A stretch of 6,126 nucleotides of DNA from a virus (lineage: Duplodnaviria > Heunggongvirae > Uroviricota > Caudoviricetes): positions 1 through 6,126 of IMG/VR virus record IMGVR_UViG_2703718811_000001; one strand, given 5' to 3'. Every line of letters begins with the position of its first letter. Within the stretch, counting starts at the first letter, position 1. Below are positions 1-6,126 of the stretch, piece after piece. A program made the position numbers and the translations under genes. Below the pieces are notes generated by a model. That model saw only the letters and a list, made by a program, of their open reading frames with translations. It ran no database searches and was not told the DNA's origin.

Positions 1-104
1 GCAGAAGCAGAAAAAGCTTATTATGCTTCCATCGGAAACAATGATCTGGCAGCCTGAGTTCACAGATAAAACTCTCTCCAGGAAAATCGGGGCGGTTCAA
101 ACTG
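1..104. repeat. Left copy of a 104-bp terminal inverted repeat; pairs with 6020-6123 (102/104 identical, mismatches at 73 and 100)
   Basis: The reverse complement of 6064-6123 equals 1-60 exactly. Alignment continues to position 104, then diverges. The repeat carries the last 14 codons and 3' flank of the outward-facing ORF at 60-335. Confidence 0.85.
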
Positions 105-335
105 CTCAGCGGCTTTTTCCACCCACGGCCTGATATTGCTGTACGGCGGGTTATTCCAGATTGCACCGTGGCTTATCCACTCAGAATTTAGCGCGTCGTC
201 GGCCTCAGTTAACCAGTGAGCGCACAGAGCATTTTTGTCGCTCGCTGCCGAATCCAGCCAGAATCCAAACTCAATACGCTCCTGTTCGGCAAAGTTACCT
301 CTGCCGAAGTTGAGTATTTTTGCTGTATTTGTCAT
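60..335 (-). CDS. Truncated DNA N6-adenine methyltransferase-like protein (phage Dam family N-terminal part, 91 aa); C-terminal 14 aa come from the terminal repeat
   Basis: ORF with SD AGGAG 6 nt upstream of the ATG at 333-335. The protein contains EFGFWLDSAAS, NALC and WNNPPYS (an NPPY catalytic motif), typical of small phage N6-adenine methyltransferases. It stops at about 91 aa, roughly half the length I recall for such enzymes, directly after entering the repeat. Confidence 0.5.
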   Translation of the reverse strand: MTNTAKILNFGRGNFAEQERIEFGFWLDSAASDKNALCAHWLTEADDALNSEWISHGAIWNNPPYSNIRPWVEKAAEQFEPPRFSWREFYL

Positions 336-338
336 AAT
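310..338 (+). promoter_or_regulatory. pO-like promoter for oop RNA (-35 TTGAGT 310-315, -10 CATAAT 333-338, 17-bp spacer)
   Basis: Sigma70-like hexamers sit at the correct distance upstream of the oop-like transcript start near 346. Confidence 0.45.
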
Positions 339-345
339 GACTCCT

Positions 346-421
346 GTGGATTGATCCAGTAATTCCCTCAGAATTGCATATCAATTTGCTTAGAGTCCCC
401 GGCGGCCACCGGGGATTTTTT
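346..421 (+). ncRNA. oop: OOP-like antisense RNA overlapping the 3' end of cII, ending in an intrinsic terminator (stem 397-402/409-414, T-run 416-421)
   Basis: The sequence GTGGATTGATCCAGTAAT...CCCCGGCGGCCACCGGGGATTTTTT closely resembles lambda oop RNA as recalled (GUUGAUAGAUCCAGUAAU...GCCGCCGGGCGUUUUUU). It lies antisense to the cII 3' end and finishes with a GC stem followed by a T-run. Confidence 0.7.
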
Positions 422-664
422 CTTTGTGATTCCATCAAGCGCATACTTAAAAGCCCTACTAATCGGACTGATGTCTGATGCCATTCCGAAAGCACACAAG
501 ACCGAAGCAATAAATCTCCAGTCCGTTCTGCTTATCTTCGATTCATGACAGCCAATCATCTTTGCCAGACCGCGCTGGGTAAGCGTTGACAGGTTGATGA
601 GTAAATCAGTTTCAGCGCGATCAATTTCTCGCTGTGATAGTTTGCTGTAACTTGTTTGTTCCAT
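368..664 (-). CDS. cII: cII-like transcriptional activator (98 aa), diverged from lambda CII
   Basis: Position matches lambda (downstream of cro and nutR). The C-terminus KKKSPVAAGDSKQIDMQF resembles lambda CII KKRPAATERSEQIQMEF, and a central SKISR helix-turn-helix-like segment matches lambda SQISR. Length is 98 aa against 97 in lambda. Confidence 0.85.
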   Translation of the reverse strand: MEQTSYSKLSQREIDRAETDLLINLSTLTQRGLAKMIGCHESKISRTDWRFIASVLCAFGMASDISPISRAFKYALDGITKKKSPVAAGDSKQIDMQF

Positions 665-674
665 TTCTTAAGAT
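642..674 (+). promoter_or_regulatory. pRE-like promoter: CII-binding direct repeat TTGC-N6-TTGT (642-655) inside the first cII codons, putative -10 TAAGAT (669-674)
   Basis: The TTGC(N6)TTGC-type repeat overlaps the 5' end of cII on the opposite strand, as in lambda pRE. It would drive antisense-cro and cI transcription. Confidence 0.45.
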
Positions 675-749
675 TTCCAATAGTGAATAGCTAGTTGAAA
701 GGTATGCGTGGAAACGCATATGGCCTTAGTTGGTCAGATATATTGGGAC

Positions 750-795
750 TCGCTTTGTCAGCGACGTAGGACGAATGTCCATTGTGAAAAGAGCG
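750..795 (-). promoter_or_regulatory. nutR: boxA-like CGCTCTTTT (787-795) and boxB hairpin TCGCTGACAAAGCGA (750-764)
   Basis: On the minus strand, between the cro stop and cII, lies CGCTCTTTT followed by a 5-bp stem and GACAA loop. The boxB matches the P22-type GCGCUGACAAAGCGC rather than lambda GCCCUGAAAAAGGGC. The 22-nt boxA-boxB spacer is longer than in lambda. Confidence 0.6.
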
Positions 796-802
796 GTGTT
801 AC

Positions 803-1003
803 TTATGCAGTTGTTTTTTTGTTACTTGGGAAGGGCTTTATTTCTTCCGCATAAACGCTTCCATCAGCGTTTATAGTTAAAAAAATCTTTCGGCCTGCAT
901 GAATGGCCTTGTTAATCGCGCTTTGATATACGCCGAGATCTTTAGCCGTCTTGGTTTGCCCAAAGCGTATTGCATAATCTTTCAGGGTTATGCGTTGTTC
1001 CAT
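803..1003 (-). CDS. cro: Cro repressor (66 aa), near-identical to lambda Cro
   Basis: [66 protein letters not shown] differs from lambda Cro as recalled at two positions (M12I, V55I). SD AAGGAGG precedes the start. Confidence 0.97.
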
Positions 1004-1026
1004 ACAACCTCCTTAGTACAGGCAAT

Positions 1027-1055
1027 CATTATCACCGCTAGAGGTATAATAGTCA
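1027..1055 (-). promoter_or_regulatory. PR promoter (-35 TTGACT, -10 GATAAT on the minus strand) driving cro-cII
   Basis: The reverse complement of 1027-1055 reads TTGACTATTATACCTCTAGCGGTGATAAT, matching lambda PR architecture. Confidence 0.85.
1030..1046. promoter_or_regulatory. Operator OR1 (TATCACCGCTAGAGGTA), one substitution from lambda OR1
   Basis: 17-bp CI/Cro operator; lambda OR1 as recalled is TATCACCGCCAGAGGTA, so position 10 is C to T here. Confidence 0.85.
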
Positions 1056-1070
1056 ACACGCACGGTGTTA
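1054..1070. promoter_or_regulatory. Operator OR2 (CAACACGCACGGTGTTA), identical to lambda OR2
   Basis: 17-bp operator, reverse complement TAACACCGTGCGTGTTG. Confidence 0.9.
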
Positions 1071-1097
1071 GATATTTATCCCTTGCGGTGATAGATT
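1069..1097 (+). promoter_or_regulatory. PRM promoter (-35 TAGATA 1069-1074, -10 TAGATT 1092-1097); leaderless cI mRNA
   Basis: Hexamers match lambda PRM with 17-bp spacing. The cI ATG at 1104 lies 7 nt after the -10, consistent with a leaderless transcript. Confidence 0.85.
1077..1093. promoter_or_regulatory. Operator OR3 (TATCCCTTGCGGTGATA), identical to lambda OR3
   Basis: 17-bp operator, reverse complement TATCACCGCAAGGGATA. Confidence 0.9.
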
Positions 1098-1100
1098 TAA

Positions 1101-1817
<717 letters not shown>

Positions 1818-1826
1818 GGAGGATAG

Positions 1827-2168
1827 ATGGCGTTCACTGACCTTGAATATCAAGCGGTCAAAAAAGAAGTTCACCAATTCATTGAAAGCATAAGGCCGCC
1901 TGAACATATCCGCAATGAACTGGATATTGTTTATAGCATCAATGACCAAACGATAGATATCGGCGAACAGCGCCCCGTGTGGCAGGGCAACCCAGGTGAA
2001 ACAAACATCCTGCCATCAGCAAGAATCAAGTACATACGTTCTCTGGATAGATGGAAAATCTATTGGATGCGGAAGGATATGAAATGGCATCAGTACAGTA
2101 CTGAACTTTCGCTGACTGATGCGCTTGAGCTTGTGCGTGCTGACCCGGATTGCTGCTTCTTCGGATGA
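1827..2168 (+). CDS. Hypothetical protein (113 aa), first gene of the cluster in the rex position
   Basis: SD GAGGAGG lies 4 nt upstream of the ATG, 9 nt after the cI stop, so it is co-transcribed with cI from PRM/pRE. No recognisable motif. It is not RexA (279 aa in lambda). Confidence 0.7.
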   Translation: MAFTDLEYQAVKKEVHQFIESIRPPEHIRNELDIVYSINDQTIDIGEQRPVWQGNPGETNILPSARIKYIRSLDRWKIYWMRKDMKWHQYSTELSLTDALELVRADPDCCFFG

Positions 2169-2169
2169 G

Positions 2170-2188
2170 TGAAGAGACGTTTGGATGA
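2170..2188 (+). repeat. Direct repeat copy 2: duplicate of the cI 3' terminus (TGAAGAGACGTTTGGATGA), would encode EETFG-stop
   Basis: 18/19 identical to 1799-1817, placed immediately after the stop of the 113-aa ORF. Confidence 0.85.
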
Positions 2189-2238
2189 TGGATGGTCGCA
2201 GAGATGCTCGTAGAGCATACAGCGATGCAGGAGAATTT

Positions 2239-2673
2239 ATGGCACTTAATTTAGAAAGAATATCTTTTATAACCCCATTTGATAGCAGCGAAGAACCCAA
2301 CCAACCGACGCTTAATTTTACATGCAATGAATTTCCTGCGCGGCTATCAATTGATTTCAGGGTTGGTATGATCGGGTTGAAACCAAATTCAAGATATAAT
2401 TTGGGTATTATGGTAATCCCCGCGCACCTAATTATAAAAAAAGGTGAGGAAATTCAATTCCCTGACGGCTCTTCGGAATCAGTTTCACTTTTCATCGATA
2501 CGAAAGATAGCCATTTTGAAACAGGGGTTGGCGGACAGGTAATAGTAACATTGAAAGAAATTAGGGTCCCAGCTAAAGGGCTATATAGTGTTATAGGGAT
2601 ATTGCAAGATAATGAAGACCCTAAAAATGAACTTCATAAAAATGAATCATTTTTCACCGTAGAGCTATTATGA
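2239..2673 (+). CDS. Hypothetical soluble protein (144 aa from the ATG at 2239; in-frame alternative start at 2185 gives 162 aa)
   Basis: SD AGGAGA at 2229-2234 precedes the ATG at 2239, whereas the ATGs at 2185/2188 have no SD and lie inside the duplicated cI terminus. No transmembrane segment. The stop overlaps the next gene's start as ATGA at 2670-2673. Confidence 0.65.
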   Translation: MALNLERISFITPFDSSEEPNQPTLNFTCNEFPARLSIDFRVGMIGLKPNSRYNLGIMVIPAHLIIKKGEEIQFPDGSSESVSLFIDTKDSHFETGVGGQVIVTLKEIRVPAKGLYSVIGILQDNEDPKNELHKNESFFTVELL

Positions 2674-3290
2674 GTGACGACAGTAATTTAAATAATCATG
2701 GAAAGCAAGACACCAACATATCTGAAAGCCGGAGGTTGAAGGTTGTTGGCGGTTCCGATTTTGAGGCTGAATTTGATAATTCTCCCACCAAGGTGCAAAA
2801 TAATTACATAAAACCGCCACAAACGGAGGAAGAAGTGGGAACGATCAGCAGAGAGGAACTTGATGCTCGCTTAGCTGCTAATAAAGCAGAGATGGAGTCT
2901 ATTGCTTCTTCCATTAGGGCTGACATGGCTCTATCTCGTGAAAGCGTTAATGTCCAATTTGCATCACTTAATGCAGCCATAAGCTCTCTATCGTCCAAGA
3001 TCGATGGAAAGATGGATAGCGCTGCTGGCGATATAAAAGCAATTAATGGGAGATTCGAAGGAATTCAAGGACAAATAACAGGGGTTAATACCGCAATTAG
3101 TGGTGTTCAGTCGGGTATTTCTATACGATTAGCCATTTTTAGTGTCATTATCGCTGTAATAGTTGCTATTCCCGGGCTGGTATCAGCTTTAAAGTCAGAC
3201 CACGCACCTTTGCAACAGCCTTCCACTTTGCAAGCGCCGCCACAAAATACCCAGCCAACAGACAACAAAAAAATCACTCCCCAGCATTAA
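2670..3290 (+). CDS. Tail-anchored membrane protein (206 aa): polar N-terminus, long coiled-coil-like region, one C-terminal transmembrane helix, Pro/Gln-rich tail
   Basis: Translationally coupled to the upstream gene. Heptad-like Ala/Ser/Ile/Leu-rich region (ELDARLAANKAEMESIASSIRADMALSRE...), a 21-residue hydrophobic stretch LAIFSVIIAVIVAIPGLVSAL near the C-terminus, then APLQQPSTLQAPPQNTQPTDNKK. It is not RexB (four transmembrane segments in lambda). Confidence 0.75.
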   Translation: MSDDSNLNNHGKQDTNISESRRLKVVGGSDFEAEFDNSPTKVQNNYIKPPQTEEEVGTISREELDARLAANKAEMESIASSIRADMALSRESVNVQFASLNAAISSLSSKIDGKMDSAAGDIKAINGRFEGIQGQITGVNTAISGVQSGISIRLAIFSVIIAVIVAIPGLVSALKSDHAPLQQPSTLQAPPQNTQPTDNKKITPQH

Positions 3291-3298
3291 CGCATTAA

Positions 3299-3320
3299 CC
3301 CGGCCTCAGCGCCGGGTTTT
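3299..3320 (+). terminator. Intrinsic terminator ending the cI-cluster operon (stem CCCGGC/GCCGGG, T-run)
   Basis: CCCGGCCTCAGCGCCGGGTTTT sits 9 nt after the stop at 3290. Confidence 0.7.
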
Positions 3321-3475
3321 CTTTGCCTCACGTTCGCCCACCTAAAAACACATAACCAATTGTATTTATTTGAAAATAAATAGATACAACTCACTAAACA
3401 TCGCAATTCTGATCTCTCGCCCTCCAAAGCAATACCCCAATTCAAAAAATAAATTCATATAAAAAACATACAGAT

Positions 3476-3492
3476 AACCATCTGCGGTGATG
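3476..3492. promoter_or_regulatory. Operator OL3 (reverse complement CATCACCGCAGATGGTT; one mismatch to lambda OL3)
   Basis: 17-bp operator adjacent to OL2 and OL1. The flanking AT-rich sequence 3380-3475 matches the lambda pL upstream region as recalled. Confidence 0.8.
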
Positions 3493-3495
3493 AAT

Positions 3496-3512
3496 TATCT
3501 CTAGCGGTGTTG
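3496..3512. promoter_or_regulatory. Operator OL2 (TATCTCTAGCGGTGTTG; lambda has TATCTCTGGCGGTGTTG)
   Basis: 17-bp operator overlapping the pL -35, with one G to A substitution. Confidence 0.85.
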
Positions 3513-3538
3513 ACATAAATACCACTGGCGGTGATACT
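3510..3538 (+). promoter_or_regulatory. pL promoter (-35 TTGACA 3510-3515, -10 GATACT 3533-3538)
   Basis: Matches lambda pL TTGACATAAATACCACTGGCGGTGATACT with 17-bp spacing. Confidence 0.9.
3520..3536. promoter_or_regulatory. Operator OL1 (TACCACTGGCGGTGATA), identical to lambda OL1
   Basis: 17-bp operator between the pL -35 and -10. Confidence 0.9.
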
Positions 3539-3606
3539 AAACACATCAGCAGGACGCACTACTCACCAGGGCGGTGAATATACAACGATTCGAATATGAA
3601 TCTACG

Positions 3607-3621
3607 GCGCTGACAAAGCGC
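3607..3621 (+). promoter_or_regulatory. nutL boxB hairpin (GCGCTGACAAAGCGC), P22 type; no canonical boxA seen upstream
   Basis: 5-bp GC stem with GACAA loop in the pL leader about 130 nt before N, the same boxB type as nutR at 750-764. Lambda identity ends near 3558, just after the pL start. Confidence 0.65.
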
Positions 3622-3749
3622 AATAACCAAAGTGAACTTTGGGGTGAATGCAGAAGCTAACCTTCTCGGCGGAGGCGCTTTGCAATGATTACGCGACCGG
3701 AGTTAGTCGCCCGGCTGTATTCACCACCAAAGTTCATCAGGAGGTCTAT

Positions 3750-4133
3750 ATGACACGCAGAACTCAGTTCAAAGGCAATTCACGTTCTCGTCGTCGTGAG
3801 CGTTTAAAGGCAAAGGCATTAGCTAACGGCGTACTGGCCCGCGAAGAAGCAATAAGTTCAGAAGTATTACACCGCCCTACTCTAAGCAGAGCGCAGATTC
3901 AGGCTAAAGGTACTCACGAAACGCCTGAGCGCATAGAAGACGCTAAGCCAATTAAGTTCATGGCACAGGACGTGATCTGGCAACAGAAAGAATACAGACG
4001 CAATCTGGAGCGAGCGGCCATTGTGTACGCGAATGAGTTTGGACATAAGCAACCAGAAACTGGTGTATGTCTTCCAAACGTAGCCATTTACGCGGCAGGC
4101 TACCGGAAATCAAAACAACTGACGGCGAGGTGA
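3750..4133 (+). CDS. N: N-type transcription antiterminator (127 aa) with arginine-rich motif, P22 gene 24 / Stx-phage class
   Basis: Strong SD AGGAGG 5 nt before the ATG at 3750. N-terminal arginine-rich motif GNSRSRRRERLKAKA resembles the P22 N motif GNAKTRRHERRRKLA, and the C-terminus LPNVAIYAAGYRKSKQLTAR resembles the P22 N C-terminus as recalled. It is the first gene after pL/nutL, and its boxB type matches. Confidence 0.85.
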   Translation: MTRRTQFKGNSRSRRRERLKAKALANGVLAREEAISSEVLHRPTLSRAQIQAKGTHETPERIEDAKPIKFMAQDVIWQQKEYRRNLERAAIVYANEFGHKQPETGVCLPNVAIYAAGYRKSKQLTAR

Positions 4134-4183
4134 CTTGTGTTGGTCGCCAGAAAATGAAATTAGGCAGCAAACCACTTATTTGA
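4121..4183 (+). pseudogene. Out-of-frame relic of a lambda-type N C-terminus (DGEVTCVGRQKMKLGSKPLI-stop) overlapping the N stop
   Basis: The -1 frame across the N stop encodes GE-VTCVGRQKMKLGSKPLI, which resembles the lambda N C-terminus GERGITCSGRQKIKGKSIPLI as recalled, and ends at TGA 4181-4183. Confidence 0.4.
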
Positions 4184-4191
4184 GGTGAGAT

Positions 4192-4662
4192 ATGACAAAA
4201 TCATGGAGCGTACCTTTTCCTGAATCAGAAACTGAACATGATGGAATGCCTGTTTTCTGGAGATTCCAGGCGACAGTTGAAGAAGATGGGATAAAAATAT
4301 TCGCACTTCAATATATAGCTTTTCATCAGACAGAGCATTATGCATGGTTGGTTCCTGCGCATTGGATTGTTAATTTTAAACCAGCACCAAATCAGTGGTT
4401 ACAGGAATGGAAACAAAGGAGAAATAGATATGCAATTAAGAAAGTAGCAAAAAATGCAGAAAGATCTTTTGCATTCCCAACGAAGAAACTTGCTATTGAA
4501 AGTTTATTGCGCCGGAAGAAATACCATTTAATGAGAATCAAACAAGATTTGGCTGTTGTATCAACTCTTGTTGATGGGATGAAGAATATTGATACATCAA
4601 CACCAGATATTGAATATAACTTTGGACACAACCAAGAAACAGAAAACTGGGTATTTTATTAG
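4192..4662 (+). CDS. Hypothetical protein (156 aa) in the position of ral/sieB
   Basis: SD GAGGTGAG precedes the ATG at 4192. Basic, Trp-rich, no transmembrane segment. No resemblance to lambda Ral (66 aa). Confidence 0.7.
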   Translation: MTKSWSVPFPESETEHDGMPVFWRFQATVEEDGIKIFALQYIAFHQTEHYAWLVPAHWIVNFKPAPNQWLQEWKQRRNRYAIKKVAKNAERSFAFPTKKLAIESLLRRKKYHLMRIKQDLAVVSTLVDGMKNIDTSTPDIEYNFGHNQETENWVFY

Positions 4663-4676
4663 TACGAATAAGCACT

Positions 4677-4704
4677 GTGTATTCATTCCAACGAGTGAAT
4701 ACAC
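4677..4704 (+). other. Hairpin (9-bp stem GTGTATTCA/TGAATACAC, 10-nt loop) in the intergenic region; possible RNA processing or attenuation structure
   Basis: Perfect inverted repeat seen in the sequence, with no T-run after it. Confidence 0.4.
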
Positions 4705-4766
4705 GGAGCAATGTCGCTCGTAACTAAACAGGAGCCGACTTGTTCTGATTGTTGGAAATCTTCTTT

Positions 4767-4792
4767 GCCCTCCAATGTGAGGGCGATTTTTT
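4767..4792 (+). terminator. Intrinsic terminator (stem GCCCTC/GAGGGC, T-run 4787-4792), tL2-like position
   Basis: GCCCTCCAATGTGAGGGCGATTTTTT between the 156-aa ORF and the next gene. Read-through would require N antitermination. Confidence 0.65.
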
Positions 4793-4812
4793 ATCTATGA
4801 GGATATGAATAG

Positions 4813-5181
4813 ATGTCAAACATCAAAAAATACATCATTGATTACGACTGGAAAGCATCAATAGAAATTGAAATCGACCATGACCTAATGACAGAGGAAA
4901 AACTTCACCAGATTAATAATTTCTGGTCAGACTCTGAATACCGACTCAATAAACACGGCGCTGTATTAAATGCTGTATTAATCATGCTGGCGCAACATGC
5001 TCTGCTTATAGCAATTTCAAAAGACCTAAATGCATATGGTGTTGTTTGTGAGTTCGACTGGAATGATGGAAATGGTCAGGAAGGATGGCCTCCAATGGAT
5101 GGTAGCGAAGGAATAAGAATTACCGATATCGATACATCAGGAATATTTGATTCAGATGATATGACTATCAAGGCCGACTAA
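4813..5181 (+). CDS. Hypothetical acidic protein (122 aa), Ea10-like by position and size
   Basis: It lies between N and cIII, where lambda has ea10, which I recall as also 122 codons. The sequence itself is not recognised. SD GAGGA lies upstream. Confidence 0.6.
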   Translation: MSNIKKYIIDYDWKASIEIEIDHDLMTEEKLHQINNFWSDSEYRLNKHGAVLNAVLIMLAQHALLIAISKDLNAYGVVCEFDWNDGNGQEGWPPMDGSEGIRITDIDTSGIFDSDDMTIKAD

Positions 5182-5256
5182 GTGCGGCTTTACCGCATAC
5201 CAATAATGTTTCACTCGAGGCGTTTTCGTTATGCAATCAAATATAAGGAGTTACCC

Positions 5257-5391
5257 ATGATGCACTTTCAGCTCGCGGGTAGCGGCGTCATGTCCGCTTT
5301 CTACCCGCACGAATCTGAATTATCACGACGAGTTAAACAATTAATCAGAGCAGCAAAGAAACAACTGGAGGCGTTATGCGCAATGAAATAG
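5257..5391 (+). CDS. cIII: cIII-like protein (44 aa; FtsH inhibitor family)
   Basis: SD AAGGAG 6 nt before the ATG at 5257. The segment QLAGSGVMSAFYPHESELSRRVKQLIRAAKKQLEAL resembles the lambda CIII core AIAGWPVAGCPSESLLERITRKLRDGWKRLIDIL. The long ORF-track start at 5182 lacks an SD. Confidence 0.7.
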   Translation: MMHFQLAGSGVMSAFYPHESELSRRVKQLIRAAKKQLEALCAMK

Positions 5392-5528
5392 CCATCAATC
5401 ACCAGATGCTTCGTGCGGCACAAAACAAAGCAGTAATAGCTCGATTTATTGGTGATTCCAAAATGTGGCTTGAAGCAAATAAAGCGATGAAATCAGCTAT
5501 CAACCTTCCGTGGTATCGCAGGAAATGA
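5376..5528 (+). CDS. kil: Kil-like small protein (50 aa), overlapping the cIII 3' end
   Basis: SD GGAGG precedes the ATG at 5376. It overlaps the cIII-like gene by 16 bp, as kil overlaps cIII in lambda. The motif ARFIGDSKMW resembles lambda Kil (ATFIGDEKMF) as recalled from memory. It falls below the ORF-track length cutoff. Confidence 0.5.
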   Translation: MRNEIAINHQMLRAAQNKAVIARFIGDSKMWLEANKAMKSAINLPWYRRK

Positions 5529-5632
5529 GTTTTACAGATAACTGGTCAGACGAAGAATTCATTCGTCAGATGAAAGAAATGCTCAATCAGCACAAAGAAC
5601 AGGAGAAAGATGATGATTCTGACTCTGAATGA
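5525..5632 (+). CDS. Possible small acidic ORF (35 aa), ATGA-coupled to the kil-like gene
   Basis: ATG at 5525-5527 overlaps the upstream TGA at 5526-5528. No strong SD, and it overlaps the next gene by 23 bp. Confidence 0.25.
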   Translation: MSFTDNWSDEEFIRQMKEMLNQHKEQEKDDDSDSE

Positions 5633-5921
5633 TAAGCGTGAAATATCGCAAATCATCGCAAGTTTTACCGATGATGATTACGAACGAATCAACAGTGAAG
5701 TTGATCGCCTCTGCAAACGTTGCGACCCAATAAGCGAAATGCTTCGCTCATATAAACCAGATGAACACACTAAGGACGCTATCGACTGGCTGGAAGATGA
5801 TGACTGTAACTATCAGGAAAAAGCCGCTGAATGGTTCTGGGATGCAATAACCGAAAGAGTTAAGGCTGAATATGCCTTCGCAATATTCAAACGCAGACAT
5901 ATTTATGGAGAAGCTGCATGA
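5610..5921 (+). CDS. Hypothetical acidic protein (103 aa)
   Basis: SD AGGAG at 5601-5605 precedes the ATG at 5610. It occupies the region where lambda has gam, but the sequence is unrelated to Gam as recalled. Confidence 0.65.
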   Translation: MMILTLNDKREISQIIASFTDDDYERINSEVDRLCKRCDPISEMLRSYKPDEHTKDAIDWLEDDDCNYQEKAAEWFWDAITERVKAEYAFAIFKRRHIYGEAA

Positions 5922-6064
5922 GCAATATCGTTGAATTCGTTAAACAGCAGGAGCAGTTATTCTGCGGAGCATTGACTGAACAGACGGTGACATGGGCTAA
6001 GGAAAGCCAGTTTGCAATTCAGTATGAACCGCCCCGATTTTCCTGGAGAGTGTTTTATCTGTGA
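5918..6064 (+). CDS. Short ORF (48 aa) whose last 14 codons and 3' flank form the right terminal inverted repeat
   Basis: ATG overlaps the upstream stop (ATGA at 5918-5921), with SD GGAG 7 nt upstream. It ends YEPPRFSWRVFYL, nearly the same as the C-terminus of the ORF at 60-335 (FEPPRFSWREFYL). Confidence 0.4.
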   Translation: MSNIVEFVKQQEQLFCGALTEQTVTWAKESQFAIQYEPPRFSWRVFYL

Positions 6065-6123
6065 ACTCAGGCTGCCAGATCATTGTTTCCGATGGAAGCA
6101 TAATAAGCTTTTTCTGCTTCTGC
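6020..6123. repeat. Right copy of the 104-bp terminal inverted repeat (pairs with 1-104)
   Basis: Reverse-complement identity with 1-104 at 102/104 positions. Confidence 0.85.
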
Positions 6124-6126
6124 CGG

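Follow-up and report, generated by a model that had tools for sequence, protein, structure and literature searches.

Elements of the IS629/IS1203 group of the IS3 family end in inverted repeats of ~25 bp with TG...CA termini, produce OrfA and OrfB through a programmed -1 frameshift, and duplicate 3 bp, occasionally 4 bp, of their target. Transposition in the IS3 family follows a copy-out-paste-in route through a circle with an IRL–IRR junction. The full-length relative of the element described here shares with the IS629/IS1203/IS3411 group of E. coli and Shigella the length of 1310 bp, the 25-bp TG...CA repeats, the pair OrfA (HTH) and OrfB (rve/DDE), the programmed frameshift, the 3-bp target duplications, the presence of many copies, and a preference for prophages. 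In O157:H7, 62% of the IS629 copies sit in prophages (PMC3271280), and multicopy IS elements break short-read assemblies (PMC4558774).

The window, i.e. the whole stretch of 6126 bp analysed here, carries an inverted repeat at its ends. Positions 1–104 are reverse-complementary to 6020–6123 at 102 of 104 positions (98%), as the first-pass annotation had stated, and chance is excluded as the origin of an inverted match of this size. Judged by their sequence, the arms of the repeat are right ends of an IS3-family element of the IS629/IS1203 group. The arrangement very probably reflects two opposite insertions of IS629/IS1203-type elements in a decayed prophage with lambda-type immunity, combined with a break of the short-read contig.

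Identity of the repeat and the contig boundary

Read inward, each arm encodes the last 18 codons of the OrfB transposase, AEAEKAYYASIGNNDLAA followed by a stop, identical to the end of OrfB in the complete element of L002, and the arms terminate in ...GGGGCGGTTCA and TGAACCGCCCC..., thus presenting the TG...CA ends. The complete L002 element is 1310 bp long, with 25-bp TG...CA terminal repeats in which IRL and IRR agree at 21 of 25 positions; the left end of the IS starts with TGAACCGCCCCGGAAATCC.... Its OrfA corresponds to PF01527 and its OrfB to PF00665 (rve); a programmed frameshift with the AL1L pseudoknot is annotated as well. This two-ORF organisation with a frameshift is seen in the full-length L002 copy, the window having only the last 18 OrfB codons. 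The copy in L005, which comes from O157:H7 and is annotated as 'IS3-like element IS1203 family', is also 1310 bp long and is 95.7% identical to that of L002. The matching element is named IS629 in GenBank phage records, and thousands of records label the IS end an IS3 family transposase. The variant present in the window has the IRR ...GGAAAATCGGGG..., as compared with ...GGAAAACCGGGG... in the O157 copy, the window showing only the last 99–102 nt of each copy. Other copies are flanked by target duplications GTA (L002), AGG (L005), and ATC (L067). A 107-nt IS end was found in 4074 of the 5426 complete E. coli genomes, at up to 49 places in one genome (median 3); OkiPb01678, the closest relative, has it at 9 chromosomal and 7 plasmid places.

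The truly repeated unit is the IS terminus alone (TGAACC...), at 1–99 and 6025–6126, so that the IS part of the arms amounts to 99 nt on the left and 102 nt on the right. Positions 100–104 and 6020–6024 are target DNA of two different phage genes, and the agreement of 4 out of 5 bases by which the repeat extends past the IS ends is a chance match between two target sites. A target-site preference, CAGT[A/T] preceding TGAACC, was considered as the source of these additional 4–5 nt and rejected, as none of 63 unbiased flanks starts with [A/T]ACTG; the top BLAST matches sharing the flank had been ranked by coverage and were thus biased toward matching flanks. One of the two mismatches (73 vs 6051) falls within the IS sequence, and therefore the arms derive from two distinct IS copies.

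The window is the entire draft contig LOIL01000110.1 (6126 bp, assembly GCA_001607685.1), which bears out the earlier proposal of a repeat-terminated assembly contig; the repeat coincides with the window ends since the assembly stopped at an IS present in many copies. In an unbiased sample of 63 occurrences from elsewhere, the same IS end is located 61–126 nt from the contig end in 51 cases, i.e. within about one k-mer, and in contigs L030 and L034 it is present, inverted, at both ends. As in other repeat-terminated short-read contigs, both sides of the window run ~100 nt into a multicopy repeat and stop there. The overhangs of example contigs assembled by SPAdes with k = 77 are shorter than the 99 and 102 nt seen here, with otherwise no substantive difference, and the longer overhangs presumably reflect a different assembler or k-mer size. 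The length of ~100 nt would be set by the k-mer length of the assembler, although the two overhangs are unequal and so do not fit neatly to one k-mer size.

Two interrupted phage genes

Apart from a 2.8-kb deletion, positions 101–6025 match a prophage in NZ_AP042495.1 that is free of the IS, at 99.97–100% identity. The features of the window are listed in Table 1.

Table 1. Positions and properties of the features identified in the window.
Feature	Position	Strand	Evidence and remarks
IS copy A, right (3') end	1–99	+	98/99 vs end of the complete L002 IS; single SNP at 73
OrfB codons of copy A	1–54	+	AEAEKAYYASIGNNDLAA; stop at 55–57; translation
IRR of copy A, 25-bp terminal inverted repeat	75–99	+	Ends in GGTTCA
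Minus-strand ORF	60–335	-	91 aa, ends in ...QFEPPRFSWREFYL and a stop; O'(21 aa)-'Dam'(58 aa)-IS read-through (12 aa)
Orphan base A	100		Neither IS nor reference Dam base (C in L001, L005)
Dam (N-6-adenine methyltransferase), internal fragment	101–276	-	~Codons 27–84, including the NPPY motif
2.8-kb deletion junction	272–276		Imperfect microhomology CAATA/CATTA, only TA exact
Start of gene O, ~20–21 codons	277–335	-	MTNTAKILNFGRGNFAEQER; identical to L001 O N-terminus; collinear from L001 6986
Lambda-type immunity and early-left region	368–5921		Pfam, PHROGs, reference annotation; 99.97% identical to L001
cII	368–664	-	
cro	803–1003	-	
cI	1104–1817	+	
Three genes at the rex position	1827–3290	+	
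N	3648–4133	+	
cIII	5257–5391	+	
kil	5376–5528	+	
Small ORFs without assigned function	Within 368–5921		
RecT-family recombinase, first 35 codons	5918–6024	+	IS-interrupted; IS read-through extends the ORF to 6064
GTA, inner copy of the 3-bp target-site duplication	6022–6024		Matched by GTA in L070
IS copy B, right (3') end	6025–6126	-	Inverted vs copy A; 102/102 vs end of the L002 IS
IRR of copy B	6025–6049		Last OrfB codons on the minus strand

On the right side the IS interrupts a gene that corresponds to L001 12632–13534, annotated as a RecT family recombinase, with PF03837 identified on the full-length protein. A second assembly (L004) has this recT::IS junction as well, and contig L070 begins with the left end of the IS, followed by GTA and then by recT from the same position, collinear down to int. 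GTA thus flanks the IS on both sides, and a simple insertion into recT is shown at the level of the lineage, not of this strain. The recT::IS junction was found as one contiguous piece in none of the 5426 complete genomes, and a search of IMG/VR with the junctions of the window gave no matches.

The left side is more complex. The fragment 101–276 is identical at 176 of 176 positions to L001 4001–4176, within an annotated Dam gene of 175 aa, and it matches PF05869 (E=5e-21) at profile positions 24–83 of 169 only, as compared with 1–167 for the reference Dam; it does not, therefore, encode an intact Dam spanning the ~169 positions of the profile. Through a deletion separate from the IS, this fragment now continues the reading frame opened by the initial 21 codons of O. 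Measured against the gene order of L001, the lost DNA comprises ninB, the DUF7301 gene, ren, and P, together with the 5' end of Dam and the greater part of O. The claim of the first-pass annotation that the repeat explains the truncation of Dam thus holds for the 3' end, where the IS lies, and fails for the 5' end, which was lost in the separate 2.8-kb deletion. The orphan A at position 100 could be a strain SNP, a leftover flank of an earlier IS after an IS-adjacent deletion, or a sign of an imprecise junction. Because this base mismatches the reference target, the left junction may represent an IS-adjacent deletion or a rearrangement, and not a fresh insertion. The far side of the Dam-side IS was found in neither IMG/VR nor the JGI metagenomes, and among the 5426 complete genomes neither the IS::Dam junction as one contiguous piece nor the O'-'Dam deletion junction was found. 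The left IS–Dam junction was seen in this contig alone.

The plus-strand ORF 5918–6064 (48 aa) ends in ...QYEPPRFSWRVFYL and a stop, resembling in this respect the minus-strand ORF 60–335. Both outward-facing ORFs are present as described earlier; the 59 bp that had been taken for their 3' flank encode, reading inward, the C-terminal 18 residues of OrfB and its stop. Nor do the 14 shared codons represent the 3' end of one full-length source gene: the reading frames of RecT and of the O'-'Dam chimera, both interrupted phage genes and unrelated to each other, run on into the terminal repeat of the IS, antisense to the transposase, and the tail EPPRFSWR(E/V)FYL before the stop is shared because both enter the IS in the same frame. 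The chimeric ORF 60–335 is almost certainly non-functional.

Origin of the inverted arrangement

In the reading that we consider very probable, one IS copy would have inserted into recT and the other into dam, in opposite orientations, and a 2.8-kb deletion, separately from the IS insertion, would have joined dam to the start of O. The interrupted genes would then read into the IS terminal repeat until a stop, both entering in the same frame. Since this IS is multicopy in such strains and a short-read assembler cannot cross it, the contig would stop ~100 nt inside the IS on each side, with the unique 5.9-kb segment emitted as a contig of its own. In this strain, each end would be followed by a full-length IS copy and then by further prophage DNA. 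The suggestion that the same sequence had been joined twice, independently, agrees with these ends being two IS insertions.

A strict assembly artefact, with at least one IS–phage junction absent from the genome owing to a chimeric contig or to assembler-generated terminal overlaps, is highly improbable. Although the repeat coincides with both ends of a complete draft contig and no second instance of the left junction was found in the complete genomes or IMG/VR, both junctions fall, to the base, on the canonical IS terminus (TGAACC.../...GGTTCA), a SNP within the IS separates the arms, so that neither was copied from the other, and the right junction appears again in an independent assembly, with its far side and a matching GTA in a third contig. 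Tn10 and Tn5 also consist of a unique segment bracketed by inverted copies of one IS, and two inverted copies around a 5.9-kb cargo have the geometry expected if the IS pair mobilised cI, cro, cII, N, and the genes at the rex position as a composite transposon. However, unlike in Tn10 and Tn5, the cargo in the window lies in a native prophage, with an interior collinear with an ordinary prophage and in its native position, at least one of the IS copies is flanked by a duplication of its own, and there is no sign that the unit moves. GTA is found on both sides of the right IS alone, with the prophage continuing normally beyond it, and therefore this copy was inserted in situ, not carried with a cargo. 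A composite transposon would have its duplication around the whole IS-cargo-IS unit and would occur in unrelated contexts; no record was found of the IS-bounded unit in another context, and the outer ends would here both be IRL, as opposed to the IRL–IRR circle junction of the IS3 family. Taken together, these features leave a composite transposon with almost no credibility.

Inversion of the segment by RecA-type recombination is possible in principle; the homology would then be provided by the two inverted IS copies of ~1.3 kb, not by 104 bp. With ~99% identity over the visible 99 nt, the copies form an adequate RecA substrate, and the odd base 100, along with the lack of a far side for the left IS, leaves room for a rearrangement. 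A short-read contig would, however, be identical for either orientation, and L070 shows the un-inverted arrangement at recT. That the segment has been flipped relative to the rest of the prophage, or flips at some frequency, is regarded as unlikely. The window encodes no site-specific recombinase, and neither an invertase nor any other dedicated inversion system was found among its interior ORFs, all of which are lambdoid early genes. It differs from programmed invertible segments (Hin/Gin/Cin, shufflon) in that its repeats are IS ends and no recombinase domain is present. Replicative intramolecular transposition as a source of the inverted copies was set aside in view of the circle route of IS3 elements and the normal direct duplication of the recT copy.

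Prophage decay and possible excision scars

The window shows a remnant prophage shaped by IS629-type elements, defective yet immunity-conferring, in which the functions of O, P, ren, ninB, Dam, and RecT are lost and the repressor/immunity region is kept. As in the IS629-associated decay of STEC prophages, genes for recombination and replication are inactivated, the nin and recombination regions contain IS copies, and a deletion is joined at microhomology. Unlike IS/IEE-associated deletions in STEC, the 2.8-kb deletion from O to Dam has no IS at its junction, and a link to excision is hypothetical. The endpoints of the O deletions in the window and in L004, which are independent derivatives, lie within 1–2 nt of each other, with different partners and 2–3 nt of microhomology. 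A common endpoint in O with variable partners is expected if an ancestral IS629-type copy at TAC in O was excised together with variable lengths of adjacent DNA, and the orphan base 100 would then be a second footprint, left by an IS-adjacent deletion. A search with a synthetic IS/O' junction for such an ancestral IS at the O breakpoint returned no records at 80% coverage or more and no IMG/VR contigs. We regard it as doubtful, though conceivable, that the decay of this prophage records IS-excision-associated (IEE-type) deletions.

Overall, the locus is ordinary, combining known biology with an assembly boundary. It carries a caution: inverted repeats at contig ends, accompanied by apparently 'conserved' C-terminal peptides on outward-facing ORFs, indicate a multicopy IS at an assembly break, and neither a new recombination module nor a shared gene. 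If the decay did proceed by IEE-type excision, natural isolates would keep readable scars of a process documented so far mainly in the laboratory.

Identity of the terminal repeat

The inverted repeat reported by the first-pass annotation (positions 1–104 and 6020–6123) was recovered by a repeat finder as 104 nt with 98% complementarity, a match far beyond chance. The two outward-reading ORFs are also present in the ORF list, one on the minus strand (60–335, 91 aa, ending in ...AAEQFEPPRFSWREFYL and a stop) and the other on the plus strand (5918–6064, 48 aa, ending in ...FAIQYEPPRFSWRVFYL and a stop). Translation inward from position 1 gives AEAEKAYYASIGNNDLAA and a stop, followed by 42 nt with the end GGGGCGGTTCA. 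The 107-nt right-arm query has matches in 4074 of 5426 complete E. coli genomes (median 3, maximum 49 places per genome), and among the matches listed all are covered by the annotation 'IS3 family transposase'.

The complete IS copy in L002, a locus of NZ_CM149872.1, has 25-bp TG...CA terminal repeats agreeing at 21/25 positions, is flanked on both sides by a GTA duplication, and encodes the transposase frames OrfA (108 aa, PF01527) and OrfB (295 aa, PF00665 rve, its final 18 residues identical to those of the window), with a programmed frameshift annotated. The right arm (6025–6126) matches this copy at 102/102 positions and the left arm (1–99) at 98/99, with a SNP at position 73, and therefore the two arms come from different IS copies. 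The L002-type element is 95.7% identical to an O157:H7 copy whose RefSeq name is 'IS3-like element IS1203 family', and the matching element is named IS629 in GenBank phage records. Both arms are thus right terminal inverted repeat (IRR) ends of IS629/IS1203-group elements, in two copies that are mutually inverted.

The IS terminus lies at position 99 on the left arm and 6025 on the right. The five bases beyond it are target DNA of two different genes (AACTG vs TACTG, outward from the IS), and the repeat measures 104 nt instead of 99 because these bases match by coincidence at four positions. A target-site preference behind the extra matches was rejected, since 0/63 flanks start with (A/T)ACTG among occurrences of the same IS end sampled from species-representative genomes with flank sequence disregarded.

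Interrupted genes and the recT insertion

Window 101–6025 matches L001, an IS-free prophage in NZ_AP042495.1, as two blocks (Table). The prophage order is ninE, Dam, ninB, DUF7301, ren, P, O, cII, cro, cI, DUF3024, two hypotheticals, N, ..., cIII, kil, hypothetical, RecT, ..., xis, int. The O–Dam join is a 2.8-kb deletion with imperfect microhomology (CAATA/CATTA). The right-hand ORF comprises the initial 35 codons of a RecT-family recombinase (full-length protein PF03837) and an IS run-on. The shared C-terminal codons, previously taken as the 3' end of a common source gene, are instead RecT and O–Dam ORFs reading into the IS; their tails agree because both genes enter it in the same frame (CAG-TxT-GAA...), a one-in-three coincidence. 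Attribution of the Dam truncation to the repeat holds for the 3' end, where the IS lies, and fails for the 5' end, which was lost in the O–Dam deletion.

Table. Coordinates of the window, its ORFs and related IS copies
Feature	Position	Detail
Block 1	window 101-276	L001 4001-4176, 100%
Block 2	window 272-6025	L001 6986-12739, 99.97%
Left-hand ORF, part 1	initial 21 codons of replication protein O	MTNTAKILNFGRGNFAEQER
Left-hand ORF, part 2	Dam codons ~27-84	PF05869 profile positions 24-83 of 169, NPPY included
Left-hand ORF, part 3	IS read-through	12 codons
Complete IS copy	L002 2506-3815 (NZ_CM149872.1)	1310 bp
IS facing Dam, L068	adjoins ninF	
IS facing Dam, L067	just past ninE	ATC duplication, same IS variant
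IS facing Dam, L005	within ninE	AGG duplication
IS facing Dam, L069	~Dam codon 154	
IS facing Dam, window	Dam codon 84	

At the position of lambda rexA/rexB, between cI and OL/PL, three other genes occupy window 1827–3290, encoding a DUF3024 protein (113 aa, full-length match to the PADLOC defence-candidate model PDC-S43, E=7e-42) and two proteins with functions unassigned (162 and 206 aa; phrog_5893, phrog_5820), the 206-aa one with a hydrophobic stretch close to its C-terminus.

A gapped pattern for the sequence expected beyond the recT insertion matched one IMG/VR contig (L070). This contig opens with the left end of the IS, followed by GTA and by recT resumed at the interruption point (...TCCAGGATTTCCGGGGCGGTTCA/GTA/TTTCCAGAAAAATG...), and is collinear with the reference to the integrase gene (99.975% over 4008 nt); the window side reads ...TTCAGTA/TGAACC.... 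Read together, the two sequences give a canonical 3-bp duplication (GTA), which implies, for this lineage, that the recT copy inserted in situ.

Dam-side junction and the endpoint in O

Position 100, an A between the IS terminus and Dam DNA, is neither an IS nor a reference Dam base (C in L001 and in the O157:H7 locus L005). Across genomes, IS629/IS1203-group copies point the same end at Dam from five distances (Table); those of the nin region in the same orientation (L068, L067, L005, L069) belong to unrelated STEC and commensal prophages. The flank of the nearby same-orientation IS starts with A in both L005 and L067. The left junction could represent a deletion out from an older insertion with one flank base retained; a strain SNP is equally possible, and a single base is insufficient evidence for the deletion. 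The far side of the Dam copy was not found in IMG/VR or JGI metagenomes. In L068 and L069 the other IS side adjoins truncated lysis genes, implying that the late regulatory region has undergone large IS-associated deletions.

The O-side deletion endpoint is common, within 1–2 nt (L001 6989–6991), to the window (272–276) and to L004 (1945–1947), a second assembly in which the recT junction recurs; the endpoint's partner is Dam in the former and P in the latter, with 2–3 nt microhomology. Each keeps DNA absent from the other, so neither is derivable from the other. The left side of L004 (1–1947) is unlike that of the window: it holds ren and an O'-'P fusion, and a truncated Q gene is joined there, by a second deletion, to a fragment of DUF7301. 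The same prophage lineage is therefore decaying by several independent routes. The fixed endpoint with variable partners and short microhomology resembles the adjacent deletions described in IS629 excision dependent on IS-excision enhancer (IEE)-type activity, which span a few nt to >40 kb (PMC9943667). No IS was found at the endpoint (synthetic IS/O' junction, 0 records at ≥80% coverage and 0 IMG/VR contigs). An excision scar with adjacent deletion appears rather improbable; the endpoint may alternatively be a deletion hotspot.

Contig ends and alternative explanations

The 91-aa chimeric protein is recorded on one contig only, LOIL01000110.1 of GCA_001607685.1 (6126 bp), the reverse complement of the window. 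The window is therefore the whole contig, and the repeat, as first described, sits exactly at its ends. Among the sampled occurrences of this IS end, 51/63 lie 61–126 nt from a contig end, in clusters at ~62, ~75 and ~126 nt. Two Phytobacter sp. V69 contigs (L030, 6489 bp; L034, 2420 bp) are like the window in carrying it inverted at both termini, and L004 stops 77 nt inside the IS. Breakage of short-read assemblies by multicopy IS is well documented (PMC4558774). Strain OkiPb01678, the closest complete relative of the window interior, has IS-end matches at 9 chromosomal and 7 plasmid places. Contig ends in MAGs labelled Thermodesulfobacteriota, Oscillibacter and Alphaproteobacteria (contigs L019, L033, L044, L049, L059, L063) also match this enterobacterial IS end exactly, most likely through contamination or mis-binned E. 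coli-derived contigs.

That the IS–phage junctions themselves are purely artefactual is unlikely, as each join coincides precisely with the IS terminus, a SNP distinguishes the two arms, and independent assemblies reproduce the right junction. In situ insertion of the recT copy argues against delivery of the segment by a composite transposon, which is contradicted as well by the segment's native prophage context and by duplication at the level of a single IS. Inversion by recombination between two 1.3-kb IS copies is possible in principle, the orientation not being readable from the contig, and 0 recombinases are encoded in the window (ORF list, Pfam, PHROGs).

In O157:H7, 62% of IS629 copies are located in prophages (PMC3271280). 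The observation is real and its biology ordinary: textbook IS629/IS1203 behaviour in E. coli prophages, the remainder being a standard assembly boundary.
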